In this document: in pieces, positions 2,712-10,536 of the stretch
Layout of the letters: every line of letters starts with the position of its first letter
Position numbering within the stretch: the stretch's first letter is position 1
Source: a virus
Reading direction: 5' to 3' (one strand)
IMG/VR virus record: IMGVR_UViG_3300045988_055798
DNA length: 40,247 nucleotides
The notes under the pieces: generated by a model
Told to the model about the DNA's origin: nothing
The model's database searches: none
Seen by the model: the letters and a program-made list of their open reading frames with translations, nothing else
Program-made: the position numbers and the translations under genes

Positions 2712-3521
2712 TTACGATGTAGCCAGCATCCCCGCGGTGCGGAGCGCGGCCAATAGGTTGTTGAAATCCTGCTGCGTGGGGGCTGCGCTCAGGTCCGCAA
2801 TGGCGGCCATCTGCTTCACGCCTCCGAGGGTGGCTGCGGCGGCAGCGGGCAGTGTATACGACGGCCCGGCCGGCCCCTGGTCACCCTTTGGCCCTTTGGG
2901 GCCTTCCGGTCCTGCGGGCCCCTGCGGCCCAGTTTCCCCTTGCGGTCCCGGTTCCCCCTGTGGGCCGGGGTCCCCTTTGGGGCCCTGAGGCCCCGCAGTG
3001 CCCTGCGCTGCGGGCACTGGCCCCACATAGGCAATGCGCAGCTCGGCCACGCCATTCCCGTCCGCCGGGCCGCCCCACTGGGCGTTGACCAGCGCCACAG
3101 TGTTTTCCCCGTCCGCCTCCGCCTCGAAGTCGCCCGGCTGATAGCCTCCGCTGGCAGTTACCCGGACATAGACTGTTCCATCCACCGCCGGAGCGCCCTT
3201 CCGGCACCTTACGTTGATGCACCCTCGCTGGAATACGGAGACTGGTTCTCCCGGGCCGTACCGCCCCTCATTCTGGCTGTAAAACTCGGACGCGGACTTG
3301 ACCTCCCGGCCGGCCACGCCGATGAACTGGTTTCCGGTGTTTCCAGCCCCCATGGGGATCACCTCGCCCTTCTGCCCCCGTACCAGGGGCATCCCGAAGG
3401 GTATGTCCTCCGCTCCGCCCAAAGGGGCGGTGGTGACGATCATATCCGGCTGTCTGGCATAGCTGCCGGAAAAGCCATGGGACATATCCCGGCCAATGGT
3501 CTGAGGACGAAGGGGCATCAT
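2712..3521 (-). CDS. Capsid decoration/cement-like protein with collagen-like repeat and C-terminal tail
   Basis: 269 aa. The N-terminal ~165 aa are paralogous to 2187..2699, followed by a Gly-X-Y run and then a [14 protein letters not shown]...[15 protein letters not shown] tail. Confidence 0.65.
2862..3002 (-). repeat. Collagen-like Gly-X-Y tract (about 15-16 triplets) inside the CDS
   Basis: aa 174-220: [47 protein letters not shown]. Confidence 0.9.
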
Positions 3522-4750
3522 TCCCCCTCCTTCCCCGCCTTGTGGGGATTACGGGCTGCATAGGCGGCCTGCGCCTCGGCGCAGGCAGTCTCATAGCTGG
3601 TGCGCCTGGCCGTGTCGGCGGCCTTCTGTGCGCTGTCCCGGGCGGCCTGAACAATCCCGCTCATCACATCGGGACCCTGGATGGTGGAGAGCAGCGCATC
3701 CACCACGCGGGCGCGTTCGGCCCGGTTCTGGATGGCCGCCACAGCGGGGCGCACCTTCTTGAGCAGGGCCACAGCCGCATCCCGTGTACCGGGCTCCATC
3801 AACTGGTCCGCCATTTCTTCGGCGGGGATAGTGACCGCCTTCTCCTTCGCCACCGTCTCCTCTCCGGCCAGCTTCTCAATCAGGTCGTCCAGGTCCTCTT
3901 CATCGTGGAGGGGCCGCTCTCCCCGGCCTCCCCGGGCCTTCGCCTCCAGCATCTCCAGAATGCGGTCCAGCTTGCTCCCGATGTCGTCGCCCTTGGGGGC
4001 GCGCTCCACCATCTCGTCAGAAGCCTGGGCTGCATCACCAGCGGGTTCCGCCTCCGGCGCCTTTGCGGCGGGTTCGGCGTCCAGCGCAGTGGCGACCGTA
4101 CTCACATCGCGGGTCAACTGCTCCAGCTCCTCCGGTGCAGCGTCATTTGCCGCCAGGCCGAAGAACCGGTAGAGCGCCTCTTTGGTCTCTTTTTTCATTC
4201 GTTTCAGTCCTTTCTCCGCCTTTCCGGCGGCGTGGTCTTTTATTGCAACACTGTGGCCCGCCCTGCCTCTCGGCACAACCGCCACGTGATTGCCCACCAG
4301 GTTTGTCTGCCGGTATCCGTCCAGGTATGGTTCAAACCTGCAATAATAGCCGCAGGAGACCTCCCTCAGCACGCCGCTTTCCACGTCGGAAGCCAGTCCG
4401 GGGTCCTTGATAATCAGGTCGGCCACGGTGTTGTCCCCATCCCGGCGCACATGCTCCAGGTGCCCCTTGGAGTAGGAAGCCTGGTTCTCCGCAGCCAGCA
4501 TCTCCGCCGGGTGCCCCCTGGTGATGTCCTTTCCCTCCAGGCTGGCCAGCGCCGCCGGAGAGAACACGTCCTCCTCCAGGCGGTAGACGGTCACTGGCCG
4601 CTCCGGTTCTCCTTCCAGCCCCAGTTCTCCCGCCGTATACATCTGCGTGCCGGTCCGGTTGATCGGCACATCGTAGCAGATCAGGTATCCCTCCGGCGTC
4701 TTGACCAGGTGCTCCGAGATATGGGAGCCATAGTACGCAACCGCCATCAC
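3518..4750 (-). CDS. Prohead protease/scaffolding fusion-like protein (DUF2213 N-terminal domain)
   Basis: 410 aa. The N-terminal domain carries [13 protein letters not shown]. The C-terminal half is Ala/Glu/Lys-rich and helical, which is scaffold-like. Confidence 0.65.
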
Positions 4751-4965
4751 TCCACCCCCGGCACCATTGCGGCATAGTCCGCGTCCCGGCCGGTCTGCCG
4801 GGAGATCAGGGAGGAAATCAGCGCCACATGGTCGGTCTCGTCCTTGTTGATCTCCAGCAGCACCCCCAGATCCTCCCGCGGTGCCAGGGCCATACAGGCC
4901 AGATACAGCCGCGTGGCCTCGATCTCCTCGGCCAGCGCCCTTTGCAGCAGTTCCAGATAGGTCAT
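4747..4965 (-). CDS. Two-helix ferritin-like (half-ferritin, rubrerythrin/EncFtn-like) protein
   Basis: 72 aa. E14-x6-Y21 (AEEIEATRLY) and E43-x2-H46 (DETDHV), the signature of one half of a di-iron site. GAGGTG RBS. Confidence 0.4.
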   Translation of the reverse strand: MTYLELLQRALAEEIEATRLYLACMALAPREDLGVLLEINKDETDHVALISSLISRQTGRDADYAAMVPGVE

Positions 4966-4983
4966 GCCGTCACCTCACTTTGC

Positions 4984-5023
4984 AAATAAAAAAGGAGCCG
5001 GCAGGATTTCTCCTGTCAGCTCC
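4984..5023 (-). terminator. Rho-independent terminator inside the head operon
   Basis: Minus strand: GGAGCTGACAGG-AGAAAT-CCTGCCGGCTCC followed by TTTTTTATTT. 12-bp stem with one wobble and one mismatch. Confidence 0.65.
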
Positions 5024-5046
5024 ATTCAGCTCTTCCCGCCCACCAT

Positions 5047-5184
5047 TCAGGGCGTGGGAACAATATTCAGTTTCTTGCGGGATACCGTCTGTACCTTGAT
5101 GGTTCCATCCTTGTCCAGCAGCAACTCCACCCGCAGTCCACGCTTGAGCGCGGCCTCAATGGCCCGTATCACTTGCTCTGTCAT
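5047..5184 (-). CDS. Hypothetical 45-aa protein (below the ORF-track cutoff)
   Basis: Hand translation: MTEQVIRAIEAALKRGLRVELLLDKDGTIKVQTVSRKKLNIVPTP. GGAGTGAAGGAAA precedes the ATG. Starts 7 nt after the upstream stop. Confidence 0.4.
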   Translation of the reverse strand: MTEQVIRAIEAALKRGLRVELLLDKDGTIKVQTVSRKKLNIVPTP

Positions 5185-5190
5185 TTTCCT

Positions 5191-5427
5191 TCACTCCAAA
5201 ATTCCCTGTTCCCTTAGCTGCCGCATGGATTCCCGGTACTTCCTATCCATCTCCTGTTCGGTCGCTTTCCGCTCAATCTCATCATCTGTGATACCATAAA
5301 CCGTCGCCCAATCTTCGGGAGAATCCCCAATATCGGCATCATAGGCTCCCGGCTCATAGACCTCCACAATTGTGGCGATCCGGCCATCCTTAAGTAAAAC
5401 AGATTCATATTGCTGATATTTTGCCAT
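5191..5427 (-). CDS. DUF4926-like small protein (candidate immunity partner of the MuF C-terminal module)
   Basis: 78 aa. YESVLLKDGRIATIVEVYEPGAYDADIGD resembles the DUF4926 SH3-like pattern. Its ATG directly abuts the MuF stop (TAA-ATG). Confidence 0.5.
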   Translation of the reverse strand: MAKYQQYESVLLKDGRIATIVEVYEPGAYDADIGDSPEDWATVYGITDDEIERKATEQEMDRKYRESMRQLREQGILE

Positions 5428-6936
5428 TTATATCTTCTCCATATGAGCTGTTACAAAGTGGGTTGTTCCATCCGGTCTGACATTCCAGGCAAGCAGTACA
5501 TTCGCAGGGCTTCCTTTACGTCCATACAGGACAACCAACTGTTCATAACGCCTTCCATGAACATCCTCCCGTTTGAGTACAGAGGGATACCTTGTTGCTG
5601 CATCCAGAATTTCTTCCCGCATCTTTTCCCAGTTGTCTTTATTATAGCCTAAGCGGGACGAAAATGCATCCCCCTTTGGATACCCGTCTCTGCTTTCCGG
5701 GTTAAAAAAATACCCTGTAAATTTGGCGTCTGCGGCGCTGGCTTTGTCTGCTCCGGGAAGTGCCCGCTCTGGATGCTCCAAAAGCCCGGCCCTCCTGCGG
5801 TAATCCAATCGCCACAGACGGTACCGCTCTCCGTCCTCCCGCTTCTGATGCAGGAAGGTCTCAAATCTCCCGGGCACCCGGTTCCCCAGCGTCACCCGGT
5901 AGCGCTCCCACTGGCGGTAATCCGCCAGCCATTGGGCCCGGGCCCGCTCTTTTTTGCGGTAAGCCGCAATCTGGCTCTCCGACCGCGGGTCTCGGCTGAA
6001 CGGGTTCTTGCGGGGGTTGGAGAAATCCTTTATTTTTTGGATCTCCCCATCTGTCCGGCCCGCCGCCGTCCAGGGCAGCAGCACATGGAGGCAGTTGGGG
6101 TGTATGTTCAGCCAGGTGTTTGCCAGTGTGTCCGGCCCTGCCGGGTCTACCTTCCCGAACGCCGCCGCCAGGGGCGGGAAGTCCGGGTCTGTGCCGCTGC
6201 GGGAGTACACCCGGCCCTCATAGGGTGCGCACAGGGCGCAGGTAGTGCCGTGGCTGGATATCATGTATAGGTCGTGCTCCGGGTCCGCGGTGAGCACCGC
6301 CAACACCTCCGCCTGCCGGGAGGTGGTTCGGGAGACCATCGTGCAGTAGGTATGCAGGCTCCAGTCCCGGCCCGCCTTGTCGGTAAAGGCCCGGACGCCC
6401 TCCCGCCGGAGCGCCTGCACAAAGGAGGGCACCGAGGCGTTCACGCCGCGTCCTGCGGCCTGCTGCTCCGCCACCTGTTCCAGCCCTACCCGGCGGTATA
6501 CGTCCGGCTCCACGCGGCCAAACAGGGCGGATTGCAGGGTAGCCATCACAGTCATGGAGGCGTCGGTTATCTCCCCCATCAAGTTTGCCGCCAGCCGGTC
6601 CACAATGGCGTGCTGCTCACCCGTGAGCACGGCCGCGTTGGCGTAGCCTGCGGCGTGCTTGGCCGCCGTCTCCGGCACCTCCAGGGCCTTCCGGGCCTCT
6701 GGCACCCGGACATAGAACTGCTTTTCAATCATCTTTGGGGCGTATTCCCAGCAGTCTGATTCCATCTGCCGGAGGATGGCCTGCACCCGCTCCAGGGCGG
6801 CCACAGCGTGGTAATCCACCAGGCCCTGGGAGCGAAGCCGCCCGATCTCGTTGATGATGGCGGTTTCCGCTCTTAGATAGATGGAGACGAGCGTTTCCAG
6901 CTCTTTCTCATTCGGCGCCCGATTCAGCGTTGGCAT
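5428..6936 (-). CDS. Head morphogenesis protein (SPP1 gp7 / Mu F family) with an extra C-terminal DUF6883-like module
   Basis: 502 aa. The MuF core ends at NIHPNCLHVLLPW. An Arg-rich linker follows. The last ~100 aa read KFTGYFFNPESRDGYPKGDAFSSRLGY...HFVTAHMEKI. Confidence 0.75.
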   Translation of the reverse strand: MPTLNRAPNEKELETLVSIYLRAETAIINEIGRLRSQGLVDYHAVAALERVQAILRQMESDCWEYAPKMIEKQFYVRVPEARKALEVPETAAKHAAGYANAAVLTGEQHAIVDRLAANLMGEITDASMTVMATLQSALFGRVEPDVYRRVGLEQVAEQQAAGRGVNASVPSFVQALRREGVRAFTDKAGRDWSLHTYCTMVSRTTSRQAEVLAVLTADPEHDLYMISSHGTTCALCAPYEGRVYSRSGTDPDFPPLAAAFGKVDPAGPDTLANTWLNIHPNCLHVLLPWTAAGRTDGEIQKIKDFSNPRKNPFSRDPRSESQIAAYRKKERARAQWLADYRQWERYRVTLGNRVPGRFETFLHQKREDGERYRLWRLDYRRRAGLLEHPERALPGADKASAADAKFTGYFFNPESRDGYPKGDAFSSRLGYNKDNWEKMREEILDAATRYPSVLKREDVHGRRYEQLVVLYGRKGSPANVLLAWNVRPDGTTHFVTAHMEKI

Positions 6937-6942
6937 AGAGTA

Positions 6943-7299
6943 TCACCAGAACTTAGAGAGGACTGTTCCCGCAATCTCACCAGCCGGCCCAAGAAATTCC
7001 GTCACTCGCTTCATGGTGGAGTTTTCTTCCAGGTATTCAATGCCCGCAGGAGTGATTTTTAGGCCGCTGGTTTCCTTGAACTGAACAGGGCTCCCAATTC
7101 TCCGGACTTCTGCAATCCCCTCGATGTATCCATCTGCCAACAGATGGGCCAGCATGTAGGTGAAGTATTCCTCGTGGACTGGGAAGTCCTTTGTGTTGGG
7201 GGCCAGCAGATTCCAGTCAGGGGCTATATTCTGTTTCAGGCATTTATACAGATAACTCAGGAATTTATTGACTAACACAAAGTAATCGTCTTTCGCCAT
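6943..7299 (-). CDS. YjcQ-like winged-helix protein
   Basis: 118 aa from ATG 7299 (GAGAGGGA RBS). LLADGYIEGI...ITPAGIEYLEENSTMKR resembles the YjcQ family. Lies in an AT-rich island. Confidence 0.55.
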   Translation of the reverse strand: MAKDDYFVLVNKFLSYLYKCLKQNIAPDWNLLAPNTKDFPVHEEYFTYMLAHLLADGYIEGIAEVRRIGSPVQFKETSGLKITPAGIEYLEENSTMKRVTEFLGPAGEIAGTVLSKFW

Positions 7300-7301
7300 G
7301 C

Positions 7302-7568
7302 TTATTCCCTCTCGTTGTCTTCCCAAATATCTTCCTGCCCTGGCGGGCAGTCGCCAGTATTATCAGAAAAATAATGATACAGCTCTTGTGTGGTAGCATT
7401 CGGATTTCTTTTTATATATTGCATCATTAAATCTTCCACGCCAAATGCTTCTATCGCTTCAACAAACCACTCTAAATCTTCTTCCAAAAAAGATTCAATT
7501 CTTGATTCCTCTTCATGGACAAAGGGCCGCAGGGCCGCTATTAACTGATAATGTCCATTCTCCCCCAT
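7302..7568 (-). CDS. Strongly acidic 88-aa hypothetical protein
   Basis: 22 Asp/Glu against 5 Arg/Lys by hand count. AT-rich codon usage unlike the neighbouring genes. Confidence 0.5.
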   Translation of the reverse strand: MGENGHYQLIAALRPFVHEEESRIESFLEEDLEWFVEAIEAFGVEDLMMQYIKRNPNATTQELYHYFSDNTGDCPPGQEDIWEDNERE

Positions 7569-7578
7569 AATACAAGCG

Positions 7579-9315
7579 TCACTCCTTCCAGGACTTTTTA
7601 ACGATCACACTTCCGCTACCATCCGCCTCAAGCCAATACCGCTTGCCCTTATAGCTGACTTGACCTTGTTGTCCCGTTTTGGCTCCCGGATATTTGGTAT
7701 TGAACTCACCCCGCAGAATACCGAAGGTCTTGGCTGAGACGGTTTTCCCCCGCTTGTTCGCCCTCTTTGACGGCGCGTACTTTGTTTCCCCAATTTTACT
7801 ATTTCCGCCGCCGCTTGTCCATCTCCCTTTTTTATCCCTTGGCTGGCTGGGCGAATAATCCCATGTCAGCGCGTCCTGCGCGGCCCCCTCAAAAGGGGCG
7901 GATATCTCCCCTCCGTACCCCAGCCCTGCCAATGGATCCCGCAGGGCGGTCACATCCTGGTAGGTTTTCCCGGCGTTGGCCGCGATCTCCTCTTCGGAAA
8001 TACTGTCAAACATCCCGGTCTCGTCCGCCAGCTTCTTGAGCTCCCTCTGAGCCGTGTCCGCCCGGAACAGGCCCGCCTGAAAGGTATCCCGGATGGCCTG
8101 GGCCTTTTTCAGCGCGATCTCCGCCACCTCGGCCGCCGTGGGAGTCCACAGGGGCGGGAAAGTGATGTCCAGCCCGTCGGGTACCGCCCCCCAGGCTGAC
8201 ATGGCCAGGACCGGCAGCAGCTTTTCCAGAATGGGCCGAAGCTTGGCCTCCCGCAGCGTGTCCACGTAGTCATAGTAGTTCCGAAGGTCGCTCTCCCCGG
8301 TGGCGTTCATCCCCGCCGGGGAGCGTCCGAACAGCTTGGTCACCGGAATCCGGGACGCGCCGGACAGGTCGAGGCACATGGAGTCGTAGACCTCCTGGAG
8401 CCCGGTAAAGGTGTACTGGGTATTCTTAATCTGGTCGCCCCGGTTGACCAACTGCATGCCGAAATTGGACTTCATCACGCTTTGGGCCTGCATCACGTTC
8501 CAGAACCGCCTCTGCTGCTCCCCGGACGTAACGGAAAAGAGCTGGTCCAGGTTCTGCACCTCCATGGTGTCCACGTTGGCCCGGAAGGTGAGCGCGGCCA
8601 TGTTGGCGGCCACGTTGTCATGCTTAACCACATCATTGTATAGGGCCTCCACCTCGGACTCTCCCCAGTACAGCTCCGCCACCCGCTCCAGGAAGGGCAG
8701 GTCGCGGCCGGTGAACCGCACCAGCCTTGAGTGGTGCACCTTCGCCACCGTGTTCCCCCTGGCGTTGGTGATGGAGTAATAGGCGGGCACCGGCTCTCCG
8801 CCCTCGAATACCAGCTCCATACCGGGTACCACGCCCTGCCAGCGGTCGAGTATGTAAAGCCCTTGGAAGGTACCGGGGTAAATGCTCTCCAGCTCCAGCG
8901 GCTGGCCCAGCATCCCCTCCTGTCCGCGGATCATGATAAGTCCGGCGGCGCCGCCGTACAGCCTGCCCCACCGCAGTCCCTCGTTGACCCGCTCCCGGAG
9001 CGCCGTCACGCGCTGAACGCGATCCAGTTCCTTCAGGTGCTCCGGCCCCACCGCTCCGGCGAGAGCAAACCACTTCTTTGTCATGTCGTCCGGGATGATG
9101 CCCACCACGTTCTGTACTACCCAGTTGTCCCGGTAGAGGGAGTTGAGCAGGGCGTAGTTGTCCGTCATCCGGGTCAGCGGATACTCTGTGGCCTCCAGCG
9201 GCGACTGGGAGCCATAGCCCAGCCGGAACAGCGGGTTGGAAAATGCGTCTTGTACGCTCACCGCCTCGGTATTTGGTTGTGCGCCCCTGGGGCGGCTTTT
9301 ATTGCGTCTGGACAC
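7579..9315 (-). CDS. Portal protein (DUF1073-type) with Lys/Gly-rich C-terminal extension
   Basis: 578 aa, immediately downstream of TerL. Its size and position fit a portal. The tail contains SQPRDKKGRWTSGGG and is basic. Confidence 0.8.
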   Translation of the reverse strand: MSRRNKSRPRGAQPNTEAVSVQDAFSNPLFRLGYGSQSPLEATEYPLTRMTDNYALLNSLYRDNWVVQNVVGIIPDDMTKKWFALAGAVGPEHLKELDRVQRVTALRERVNEGLRWGRLYGGAAGLIMIRGQEGMLGQPLELESIYPGTFQGLYILDRWQGVVPGMELVFEGGEPVPAYYSITNARGNTVAKVHHSRLVRFTGRDLPFLERVAELYWGESEVEALYNDVVKHDNVAANMAALTFRANVDTMEVQNLDQLFSVTSGEQQRRFWNVMQAQSVMKSNFGMQLVNRGDQIKNTQYTFTGLQEVYDSMCLDLSGASRIPVTKLFGRSPAGMNATGESDLRNYYDYVDTLREAKLRPILEKLLPVLAMSAWGAVPDGLDITFPPLWTPTAAEVAEIALKKAQAIRDTFQAGLFRADTAQRELKKLADETGMFDSISEEEIAANAGKTYQDVTALRDPLAGLGYGGEISAPFEGAAQDALTWDYSPSQPRDKKGRWTSGGGNSKIGETKYAPSKRANKRGKTVSAKTFGILRGEFNTKYPGAKTGQQGQVSYKGKRYWLEADGSGSVIVKKSWKE

Positions 9316-10536
9316 TTACTCGAACCTCCAGTCCGGCAGTGAATTGATGTAATAGCGCAGGGCGTCCGGCCCGTGGTCCCGCTCCTTCAGGGGCTTCTCA
9401 TCCCCCCGCTGGCCCGCCTTCTCGTCCCACAAATAGGTGCCCAGTTCGTCCAGCAGGCCGGCACAGGCTTCACTGACCAGAATTTTTCTGCGGTGAAACA
9501 GGCTTCCGGTCTTGCGTATACCGTCCAGCACCTCATTTTCCGCAGGGATGACATACACCCCCCGCCGCCTCAGTTCCTCGATAAACGAGGCCGCCGAGGG
9601 ATCTACGATCACCGCGCACCATTCCCTGCCCAGAAAGTCCAGAAGGTCGTCGGCATACTCCTGGTCGGTCTTCTGCCGGCGCTCCTTCCGGCTGTCCCAG
9701 CGGTACTCCCTGTCCACCCGGATCACTCCATCGTGGTCATAGATGTCCAGAAACACCGTAGGGTTGGCGGTACCGTAGTCACAGGCCACGGTTCTCTGGG
9801 AAACCCATTCCAGATCCACCGGGCGTTCCTGCGTCCGGTAGACATTCTCTGTCTGGTCAAACATGTCGTAGATAAGCCCCTCCGACATGACCCACAGGCC
9901 CAGAATGTACCGCTGGTAGAACACCCCGGCATACATGCTCCGGTATCTGGCCCGGGTGGCCTCGTCCAGCGCCGGGTTGTCCTCCATGGTGAAGTGCAGA
10001 TGGAGGGCCTTGTGCTCCTCCGCCTTTAGAATCCACTCCTGCCGGAACCAGTGCTGCGGCCCCTCCGGGTTGCAATTGAACCATAGCTTTGCCCCTGTCA
10101 CGGAGCACCGAGCCATGGCCTGTTCCACAAAAGAGCGGGGCATCAGGGCCACCTCGTCCAGCAAAACCCCCGCCAGGGTGATACCCTGAATCAGCGTGTA
10201 GGAGCTCTCGTCCTTGCCGCCGAACAGGTAGAAGCGGTTCTCCCGCACCCCACGCCGGGCCGTAATTACATGGCCGGAGCGGCTGTAGGAAATGGTGAAG
10301 TTCTGCCGCAAATACTGCACCGCCAGAAGCGGCGTCACAATGTTGCGCTCCACCGCCCCTACCGACTTCCCACAGAGTGCAAACGCGTAGCCGTTGAAAC
10401 GTCCCATTGCCCACAGGAAGAAGGACAACGACATGACTGAGGTTTTTCCCGACCGCACCGCCCCGTCACAGATAAGCGCATCATAGTCCCGGTATGGGAA
10501 ACGCAGAATCTCCCTCTGCTTTTCAGAGAAGCCCAT
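9316..10536 (-). CDS. terL: Terminase large subunit, PBSX/XtmB type
   Basis: 406 aa. Walker A CDGAVRSGKTS and a nuclease half. Overlaps the TerS end by 14 nt. Confidence 0.9.
   Translation of the reverse strand: MGFSEKQREILRFPYRDYDALICDGAVRSGKTSVMSLSFFLWAMGRFNGYAFALCGKSVGAVERNIVTPLLAVQYLRQNFTISYSRSGHVITARRGVRENRFYLFGGKDESSYTLIQGITLAGVLLDEVALMPRSFVEQAMARCSVTGAKLWFNCNPEGPQHWFRQEWILKAEEHKALHLHFTMEDNPALDEATRARYRSMYAGVFYQRYILGLWVMSEGLIYDMFDQTENVYRTQERPVDLEWVSQRTVACDYGTANPTVFLDIYDHDGVIRVDREYRWDSRKERRQKTDQEYADDLLDFLGREWCAVIVDPSAASFIEELRRRGVYVIPAENEVLDGIRKTGSLFHRRKILVSEACAGLLDELGTYLWDEKAGQRGDEKPLKERDHGPDALRYYINSLPDWRFE

Follow-up and report, generated by a model that had tools for sequence, protein, structure and literature searches.

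The IMG/VR virus record IMGVR_UViG_3300045988_055798, a stretch of 40,247 nucleotides (nt) that was analyzed as a whole and is referred to here as the window, carries in its head gene module a MuF head protein whose C-terminal domain and small downstream partner gene have the organization of a polymorphic toxin locus. We assign a probability of about 0.8 to the reading that this is a MuF polymorphic toxin locus in a Flavonifractor plautii prophage, consisting of a predicted DUF6883 RNase and its cognate immunity protein of 78 amino acids (aa). All coordinates refer to the whole window and the gene set lies on the minus strand; loci retrieved in the comparative scans carry L-numbers and retrieved protein relatives carry P-numbers. 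The three open reading frames (ORFs) that a preliminary description of this DNA had reported were recovered from the ORF list with the same coordinates: 5428..6936 (502 aa, the MuF protein), 5191..5427 (78 aa) and 5047..5184 (45 aa, referred to as p45). The toxin/immunity layout proposed in that description is supported by the two-way linkage of the toxin domain and the 78-aa gene, by an allelic swap of the pair, and by alternative toxins and orphan immunity genes in related loci.

The C-terminal module of the MuF protein (aa 393-502 plus the stop codon, 5428..5760) is a predicted RNase toxin domain of the DUF6883/BECR-Tox3 family, based on its Pfam match, its fold and its conserved residues. 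The hidden Markov model check that the preliminary description had called for confirms the family: DUF6883 (PF21814) matches aa 393-499 with 50.2 bits against a gathering cutoff of 27 (E=3.5e-13, profile positions 2-108 of 110). A word-indexed search, made first with the module and then with a seven-sequence profile, identified 88 relatives, all of which except a few short or frameshifted fragments had already been annotated with PF21814. An AlphaFold2 model based on a 65-sequence alignment (mean predicted local distance difference test [pLDDT] 93.7, predicted template modeling score 0.86) places five helical segments ahead of a four-stranded antiparallel sheet, and the model and the Foldseek comparison both display the pre-alpha helix, alpha helix and four-stranded antiparallel sheet of the colicin-like BECR fold. 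The top Foldseek matches in the PDB were the four chains of 6CP9, CdiA-CT of Klebsiella pneumoniae 342 (E=1.5e-4 to 8.7e-4, probability 1.0, best template modeling [TM] score 0.72, 18-20% identity in the structural alignment), followed by CdiA-CT EC3006 (6VEK, 6CP8); these are BECR tRNases. The best structural matches in BFVD were two uncultured-phage "minor capsid proteins" (TM scores 0.84 and 0.79) and one metallopeptidase fusion.

Four residues (K405, Y409, K421 and W484) are invariant in the 65 aligned toxin sequences, a further six (R428, Y431, N435, Y464, Q466 and N479) are present in at least 90%, and position 496 in the last strand is Ser or Thr in 62/65. The window toxin retains every one of these residues. 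The combination of a K-x3-Y helix, an Arg and a C-terminal Ser/Thr resembles the active sites of CdiA-CT toxins, and by this analogy the predicted active site would comprise the K405-x3-Y409 helix, K421/R428 and S/T496 on the last strand. CdiA-CT Kp342 is a BECR tRNase of a contact-dependent inhibition system; it is built from five helices and four strands, needs GTP, EF-Tu and EF-Ts and has the active site K157, Y160, H170, R252 and T255, and the BECR tRNase EC3006 uses K204, Y208, H256, R260 and T330 (PMC9086364). The window domain shares with CdiA-CT Kp342 the five-helix/four-strand order, the Lys and Tyr on the N-terminal helix, and the Arg and Thr/Ser, but the 18-20% identity goes along with an absence of HMMER-detectable homology and a Lys replaces the His. 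PDB sequence searches returned no match to Kp342, and the His of its K/Y/H/R/T site is not conserved; the likeness is in the fold, and a likeness in mechanism would be by analogy. The two systems also differ in delivery, by a two-partner secretion filament in Kp342 and presumably by a phage head protein here, and in immunity, CdiI Kp342 having one helix and nine strands (PMC9086364) and the protein encoded here being a predicted small SH3-like barrel.

The gene of this 78-aa candidate immunity protein (5191..5427) starts at the base after the MuF stop codon, the junction reading ATA TAA ATG as had been noted from the sequence. In the AlphaFold2 model (pLDDT 94.5) the protein folds into an SH3-like barrel of five strands, to which a helix is added at the C-terminus (aa 57-73). 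It is strongly acidic (pI 4.4, net charge -9.5), and the toxin domain is basic (pI 8.9); a basic toxin with an acidic partner is the usual pattern of nuclease and immunity pairs. DUF4926 (PF16277) is its sole Pfam match, covering aa 8-35 (E=1e-3), and none of its 87 close relatives carries a precomputed Pfam domain. An exhaustive profile search of 1.84 billion representatives identified a family of 266 proteins at E<=1e-3, most of them 55-80 aa long. Among 145 family representatives, 22 matched DUF4926 at E<=0.01 (best E=7.1e-7) and the only other recurrent match was the SH3 domain of MutS2 (5 hits). The designation of the downstream gene as DUF4926-like is therefore upheld as a distant relationship but not as a family assignment, the score being 18.8 bits against a cutoff of 29.1, and the profile matches suggest a peripheral or sister family lying outside DUF4926 as its model delimits it. 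Searches of PDB sequences with the 78-aa protein, both as a single sequence and as a profile, returned chance-level matches only. A profile scan of genome contigs found 12 loci, all of them Firmicutes prophage-like, and gave no canonical DUF4926 set for a profile-profile comparison. As a separate observation, L157 (3809-4168) and L159 encode an immunity-family domain that carries a Cys_rich_CPCC zinc ribbon at its N-terminal side, in a non-MuF context with a second CPCC gene adjacent.

The remainder of the 502-aa protein identifies the head protein that carries the module. Its aa 1-332 (5941..6936) form a MuF-superfamily minor head protein domain of the Phage_min_cap2 (MuF2) type, with PF06152 matching aa 11-332 in Pfam (E=7.6e-19, 68.3 bits against a cutoff of 26.3), and the full protein matches the minor head proteins of phrog_581 (E=4e-54). 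The sequence HPNCLHVLLPW, at which the preliminary description had ended the MuF core, is present near aa 279-289, and the Arg-rich linker that it had placed behind the core corresponds to a basic pre-toxin region at aa 333-392 (5761..5940, pI 10.75). This linker is conserved up to the toxin junction, reaching aa ~379 in a relative that bears a different toxin domain (Ntox50), and a motif within it (LDYxRR..L.HPE..LP) is common to DUF6883 fusions on Phage_Mu_F and Phage_min_cap2 N-termini. Proteins of the MuF/gp7 type bind the portal, and each capsid contains a few copies of them. Searches of NCBIfam and PADLOC returned nothing for the MuF protein or the 78-aa protein. Related MuF head proteins of ~800 aa (L046-L049, L113 and L126) contain an intein (PF14890) within the MuF domain, upstream of the C-terminal toxin.

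The association of the toxin domain with the 78-aa gene was examined from both sides. A scan of IMG/VR with the toxin profile retrieved 80 loci (43-100% identity), and in 76 of these a gene of the 78-aa family starts only a few bases from the stop codon of the toxin. The remaining four loci are apparent exceptions (L046-L049, of which L049 was inspected) and carry a diverged 65-aa SH3-like gene at this position that is weakly DUF4926-like. The scan with the 78-aa profile added 75 new loci and the DUF6883 module ends at the start of the small gene in 70/74, L108, one of the five non-matching loci, being excluded from the denominator as a locus without upstream sequence. The linkage of the two genes is far beyond chance and agrees with the adjacent pairing that the preliminary description had stated for bacterial genomes. 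The toxin domain occurs on two head protein families, Phage_min_cap2 and Phage_Mu_F, with the small gene downstream on both, and in nearly all of the ~150 loci it forms the C-terminal part of a MuF1 or MuF2 head protein encoded in the late head module. Pairwise identities of toxin and immunity proteins correlate in a mirror-tree comparison (r=0.52, 75 pairs; maximum of 999 permutations 0.19). A tandem pair of immunity-family genes follows a single DUF6883 toxin in L143, L145 and L147 (3992-4339).

Prophages that are otherwise nearly identical to the window carry a second allele of the pair. L035, L036 and L166, the last being the F. plautii type strain ATCC 29863, show 97-100% protein identity to the window in the portal, MuF aa 1-380, p45, the 72-aa protein p72 and the protease, and they carry a divergent allele (allele B) whose toxin domain and 78-aa protein are 64% and 68% identical to those of the window. 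The DNA identity to L035/L036 is 92-100% down to position 5729, 40-88% in 5728..5229 and 98-100% from 5228 on. Because the identity falls only between these boundaries, the swap is limited to 5229..5728, an exchangeable toxin-immunity cassette that begins at approximately MuF codon 403 and reaches codon 66 of the 78-aa gene. Only the predicted catalytic domain and its partner are covered by the exchanged segment. The G+C content falls from ~0.65 to 0.45-0.53 over ~5000-5800, a region that includes p45 and the terminator in addition to the cassette.

Other relatives have replaced the toxin. The MuF proteins of L001-L004 and L109 share 75% identity with the window protein over aa 1-379 and continue into Ntox50 (PF15542, E=4e-30), followed by a 61-aa gene, a 71%-identical copy of the 78-aa gene, and p45; the 78-aa homologue of the Ntox50-bearing prophage is named Pseudoflavonifractor hominis in NCBI. 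Compared with L001, the 78-aa gene shows 20 synonymous and 23 non-synonymous codon differences. In L113 a MuF-intein-DUF4258 protein is followed by a 91-aa gene and, further on, by a 43-aa C-terminal DUF6883 remnant and an immunity-family gene, and in L126 another, unassigned MuF C-terminus is followed by a 74-aa gene and an orphan immunity-family gene. Immunity genes without their toxin and fragments of displaced toxins are hallmarks by which polymorphic toxin loci are known (e.g., Poole et al. 2011, cited in PMC5576092).

Natural variants with a disrupted toxin, including frameshifted (P0009 and P0010) and fragmented forms (L151-L153), keep an intact immunity gene. An in-frame 12-aa toxin deletion (SRLGYNKDNWEK) that removes R428-W436 was observed in L028 (3965-4315), where the immunity gene is 100% identical. 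In L005-L008 the gene is split; in L005 (5860-6040) a MuF protein of 357 aa and the DUF6883 module lie in different frames owing to one extra G in a G5 run. A split of this type is present in four samples and could represent a simple inactivating mutation or a slippage-prone tract; a programmed frameshift was considered and rejected, the one extra G being the simpler account.

The exact 78-aa and 45-aa proteins are named F. plautii in NCBI and UniProt, and the NCBI entry "phage minor capsid protein [F. plautii]" (WP_257591730.1, 502 aa) falls into the same 90%-identity cluster as the window MuF protein. The locus is a prophage of this gut Firmicute because an identical locus is embedded in contigs of 1.1-4.5 Mb, among them the chromosome CP097282.1, despite the lack of an integrase among the window ORFs scanned. 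An assembly collection contains the exact 78-aa sequence in 25,157 of its indexed blocks, and the element is very common; a megablast search of 4700..7600 against the GenBank phage collection gave no match.

Taken as a toxin-immunity system, the locus could work as follows. The MuF2 domain (aa 1-332) would serve as the head-incorporation module, joined through the basic linker to the C-terminal DUF6883/BECR-Tox3 domain, and the toxin would probably be carried in the head and enter the cell together with the DNA. The toxin is a predicted metal-independent colicin-like BECR endoribonuclease, most likely a tRNase that would arrest translation, because colicin-like BECR enzymes mostly cleave specific tRNAs (bioRxiv 10.64898/2026.08.28.747851). 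The 78-aa acidic SH3-like protein would be the cognate immunity protein, which in the producing cell would bind the toxin directly and so neutralize it, probably by blocking its active face. Its gene is probably translationally coupled 1:1 with the toxin gene, and it would protect lysogens if expressed there. We infer RNase activity and target, neutralization through binding, virion packaging and delivery into target cells from what is established for these families. Toxin domain and immunity gene are exchanged between phages as one ~500-bp cassette, and recombination probably uses two conserved stretches as handles, the pre-toxin linker and the 3' end of the immunity gene.

Several points weigh against this interpretation. 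Every step of it was reached by computation. What the analysis shows is how the domains are arranged and folded, which polar residues are conserved, that the two genes are linked and exchanged as a cassette, that orphan immunity genes occur, and that the locus is a prophage. The DUF6883 toxin family has no conserved His in the 65 aligned sequences, a residue that many colicin-like BECR RNases use (bioRxiv 10.64898/2026.08.28.747851). PDB searches with the toxin as a single sequence and as a profile gave chance-level matches only, so that no solved structure is detectable by sequence, and the active-site assignment is by analogy only. The 78-aa protein scores below the DUF4926 gathering threshold, and a Foldseek search of its model against the PDB returned only generic SH3, KOW and Tudor folds at E>=0.1, without the CdiI of 6CP9. 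A consensus scan of 4600..7700 found no promoter-like site from which the immunity gene could be expressed in a lysogen. Copies of the 78-aa family beside other toxins could also mean a toxin-independent role, and the mirror-tree correlation is expected for any two linked genes with a shared history, which makes it weak support.

Among the alternative explanations, an unlikely one is that the pair is a prophage toxin-antitoxin or abortive-infection module that acts only in the lysogen, with an incidental MuF fusion and no delivery by the virion. BECR RNases are common in toxin-antitoxin and defense systems, the unit is closed by a terminator in the manner of a moron and differs in G+C content from the backbone, and the toxin is a separate ORF in L005-L008. 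The stand-alone toxin of L005, however, stems from the extra G in the G5 run and is not an independent gene design, and nearly all of the ~150 loci have the domain at the C-terminal end of a MuF1 or MuF2 protein encoded in the late head module. The consensus scan found no promoter-like site for lysogenic expression, and PADLOC gave no match for the pair.

Slightly less probable still is an inactive BECR-fold domain that acts as an RNA- or DNA-binding structural appendage, with the 78-aa protein as an assembly chaperone or partner. The MuF-C domain of phage Mu gp30 provides a precedent, described as an inactive PBECR domain with a predicted binding role (Iyer et al., PMC5512222), and both the family's lack of a conserved His and the persistence of the 78-aa gene in phages whose MuF protein has a different C-terminus would fit it. 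What argues for an enzyme is the retention of approximately eleven invariant or near-invariant polar residues across homologues of 23-100% identity, which is typical of enzymes, and the interchange of DUF6883, at the same junction, with Ntox50 and DUF4258, which are bona fide toxin domains. The toxin domain is disrupted by natural deletions, frameshifts and splits in phages whose backbone is intact, and it is therefore dispensable for morphogenesis. In addition, the strong acidity and the fast divergence of the partner resemble those of an immunity protein.

The idea that the 78-aa protein is not the cognate immunity protein but a conserved small head-module gene beside the toxin, with immunity encoded elsewhere or unneeded, would fit its subthreshold DUF4926 score, its generic SH3 fold and its occurrence after Ntox50 and other toxins, but is very improbable given that in allele B the gene and the toxin domain are the only parts exchanged, and together, that the family tracks DUF6883 over two MuF N-terminal families and several backbones without p45 and p72, that a family member follows the orphan toxin fragment in L113, and that tandem duplicates occur as in immunity arrays.

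The toxin-immunity interpretation of DUF6883-MuF proteins is supported here and is already present in the literature at the computational level. The MuF polymorphic toxin class was defined by Zhang et al. (2012, PMC3482391) and Jamet et al. (2017, PMC5576092), and phage BECR domains on MuF proteins were described by Iyer et al. (2017, PMC5512222). The preliminary description knew of no case of this pair as MuF cargo, a statement that is superseded by a preprint of Pham et al. from August 2026 in which DUF6883 is named BECR-Tox3, commonly with DUF4926 downstream and often fused to Phage_Mu_F (bioRxiv 10.64898/2026.08.28.747851). The window locus shares with the BECR-Tox3 system of that preprint the above-threshold Pfam domain, the colicin-like BECR topology, the small downstream gene and the MuF-type fusion, but its N-terminus is Phage_min_cap2 instead of Phage_Mu_F and its partner is a subthreshold DUF4926 protein with an additional C-terminal helix; the toxin validated in the preprint is BECR-Tox2, not Tox3. 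With the MuF toxins of Jamet et al. (PMC5576092) it has in common the MuF-superfamily N-terminus (PF06152, their MuF2), the position in the head/packaging module after the portal, a variable C-terminal toxin, a downstream ORF of <150 aa and residence in a gut Firmicute prophage, and it differs in that an 88-aa gene and a YjcQ gene separate the portal from MuF. DUF6883 was not found by name in PMC5576092, and the word "orphan" occurs 0 times in its main text.

Two further systems are comparable. The PBECR-MuF/portal fusions (PMC5512222) likewise place a phage BECR-fold predicted RNase at the MuF C-terminus and were proposed to be packaged and injected, but PBECR families are described as conserving a His (or Arg) in their N-terminal helix and as usually lacking a dedicated immunity gene, whereas the window domain has a K-x3-Y helix and a linked immunity gene. 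MuF-Apk2 with IapK/Aph1 (PMC12226406) follows the same locus logic and is the sole MuF class found with experimentally shown toxicity and protein-protein immunity; unlike the domain described here it is a (p)ppApp synthetase, a nucleotide pyrophosphokinase and not an RNase, and it has two immunity genes. Precise allelic cassette boundaries in one host species, orphan immunity genes and toxin remnants in MuF loci, and a phage-borne partner family below the DUF4926 model were not found in four texts (PMC3482391, PMC5576092, PMC5512222 and bioRxiv 10.64898/2026.08.28.747851).

The toxin locus is followed by p45 (5047..5184; phrog_29211, E=1.7e-35) and by an intrinsic terminator (4984..5023), which consists of a hairpin at 4994..5023 and a U-run at 4984..4993. 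The hairpin has an interrupted stem of 13 bp with a GAAA loop (-21.3 kcal/mol, z=-4.05, 0/200 shuffles fold as well) and was overlooked by the consensus terminator scan owing to one mismatch; it is kept in the diverged L001, where a loop change and a G-C to G-U change preserve the structure. The preliminary description had both elements closing the toxin unit. Both are real, but they belong to the phage backbone and not to the toxin cassette, because they are identical in the allele B prophages (p45 with 100% identity) and lie outside the exchanged segment. With 20 synonymous and 2 non-synonymous codon changes relative to L001, p45 is under strong purifying selection. It is basic (pI 10.2) and shares 96% identity with its counterpart in L001, against 55-75% for the backbone of that locus, which makes it far more conserved than its neighbors. 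Weak matches of p45 to PLDc_2, Cro and PADLOC DrmC (E=0.0026) were rejected as noise.

The late operon is ordered, along the minus strand, as large terminase (9316..10536), portal (7579..9315, PF06381), an 88-aa ORF, a YjcQ-family gene, the 502-aa MuF gene, the 78-aa gene, p45 and the terminator, and continues with a 72-aa gene, a DUF2213 protease/scaffold gene, a cement/head-fiber protein and the major head protein. Genes for sheath, tape measure, baseplate, holin and endolysin are located in other parts of the window. The MuF gene thus lies in the head/packaging module downstream of the portal with two small genes in between, whereas sibling prophages have one 61-aa gene at this position. 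This interval is part of a variable spot (6943..7935) of low G+C content (0.39-0.52) that includes a C-terminal extension of the portal (aa ~461-578), the 88-aa ORF and the YjcQ-family gene; it is present in some prophages of 97-100% identity, and others carry a different portal tail and the 61-aa gene. The 72-aa gene (4747..4965), just upstream of the protease/scaffold gene, has weak, subthreshold matches to encapsulin ferritin-like cargo (NCBIfam EncB_fam, E=1e-4; TIGR04535, E=2.5e-4; Pfam EncFtn-like, E=4e-3), and its product contains EExxE and ExxH motifs; it would be unusual for a phage head module to encode a ferritin-like protein. The cement/minor capsid protein (2712..3521) combines a collagen-like Gly-X-Y repeat with a head-fiber C-terminus.

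MuF toxins are abundant in human gut phages, and candidate roles for them are host takeover, the lysogeny decision and a weapon between strains. The locus leaves the knowledge of the class unchanged and is a clear but ordinary example of it. Nevertheless, toxin-swapped prophages keep an intact 78-aa-family gene, and at least two alleles exist on an otherwise identical F. plautii prophage. If the orphan immunity genes are selectively maintained, the toxin must reach cells from outside, in the virions of related phages, and it is conceivable, although we hold this only tentatively and consider it doubtful, that MuF cassettes constitute a strain-level superinfection and kin-discrimination system among gut lysogens. 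The locus would be a favorable test case, as it combines a cultivable host, a common immunity protein, two natural alleles on a near-identical backbone and toxin-null variants, and kin discrimination, if true, would provide a direct handle on what MuF toxins are for.

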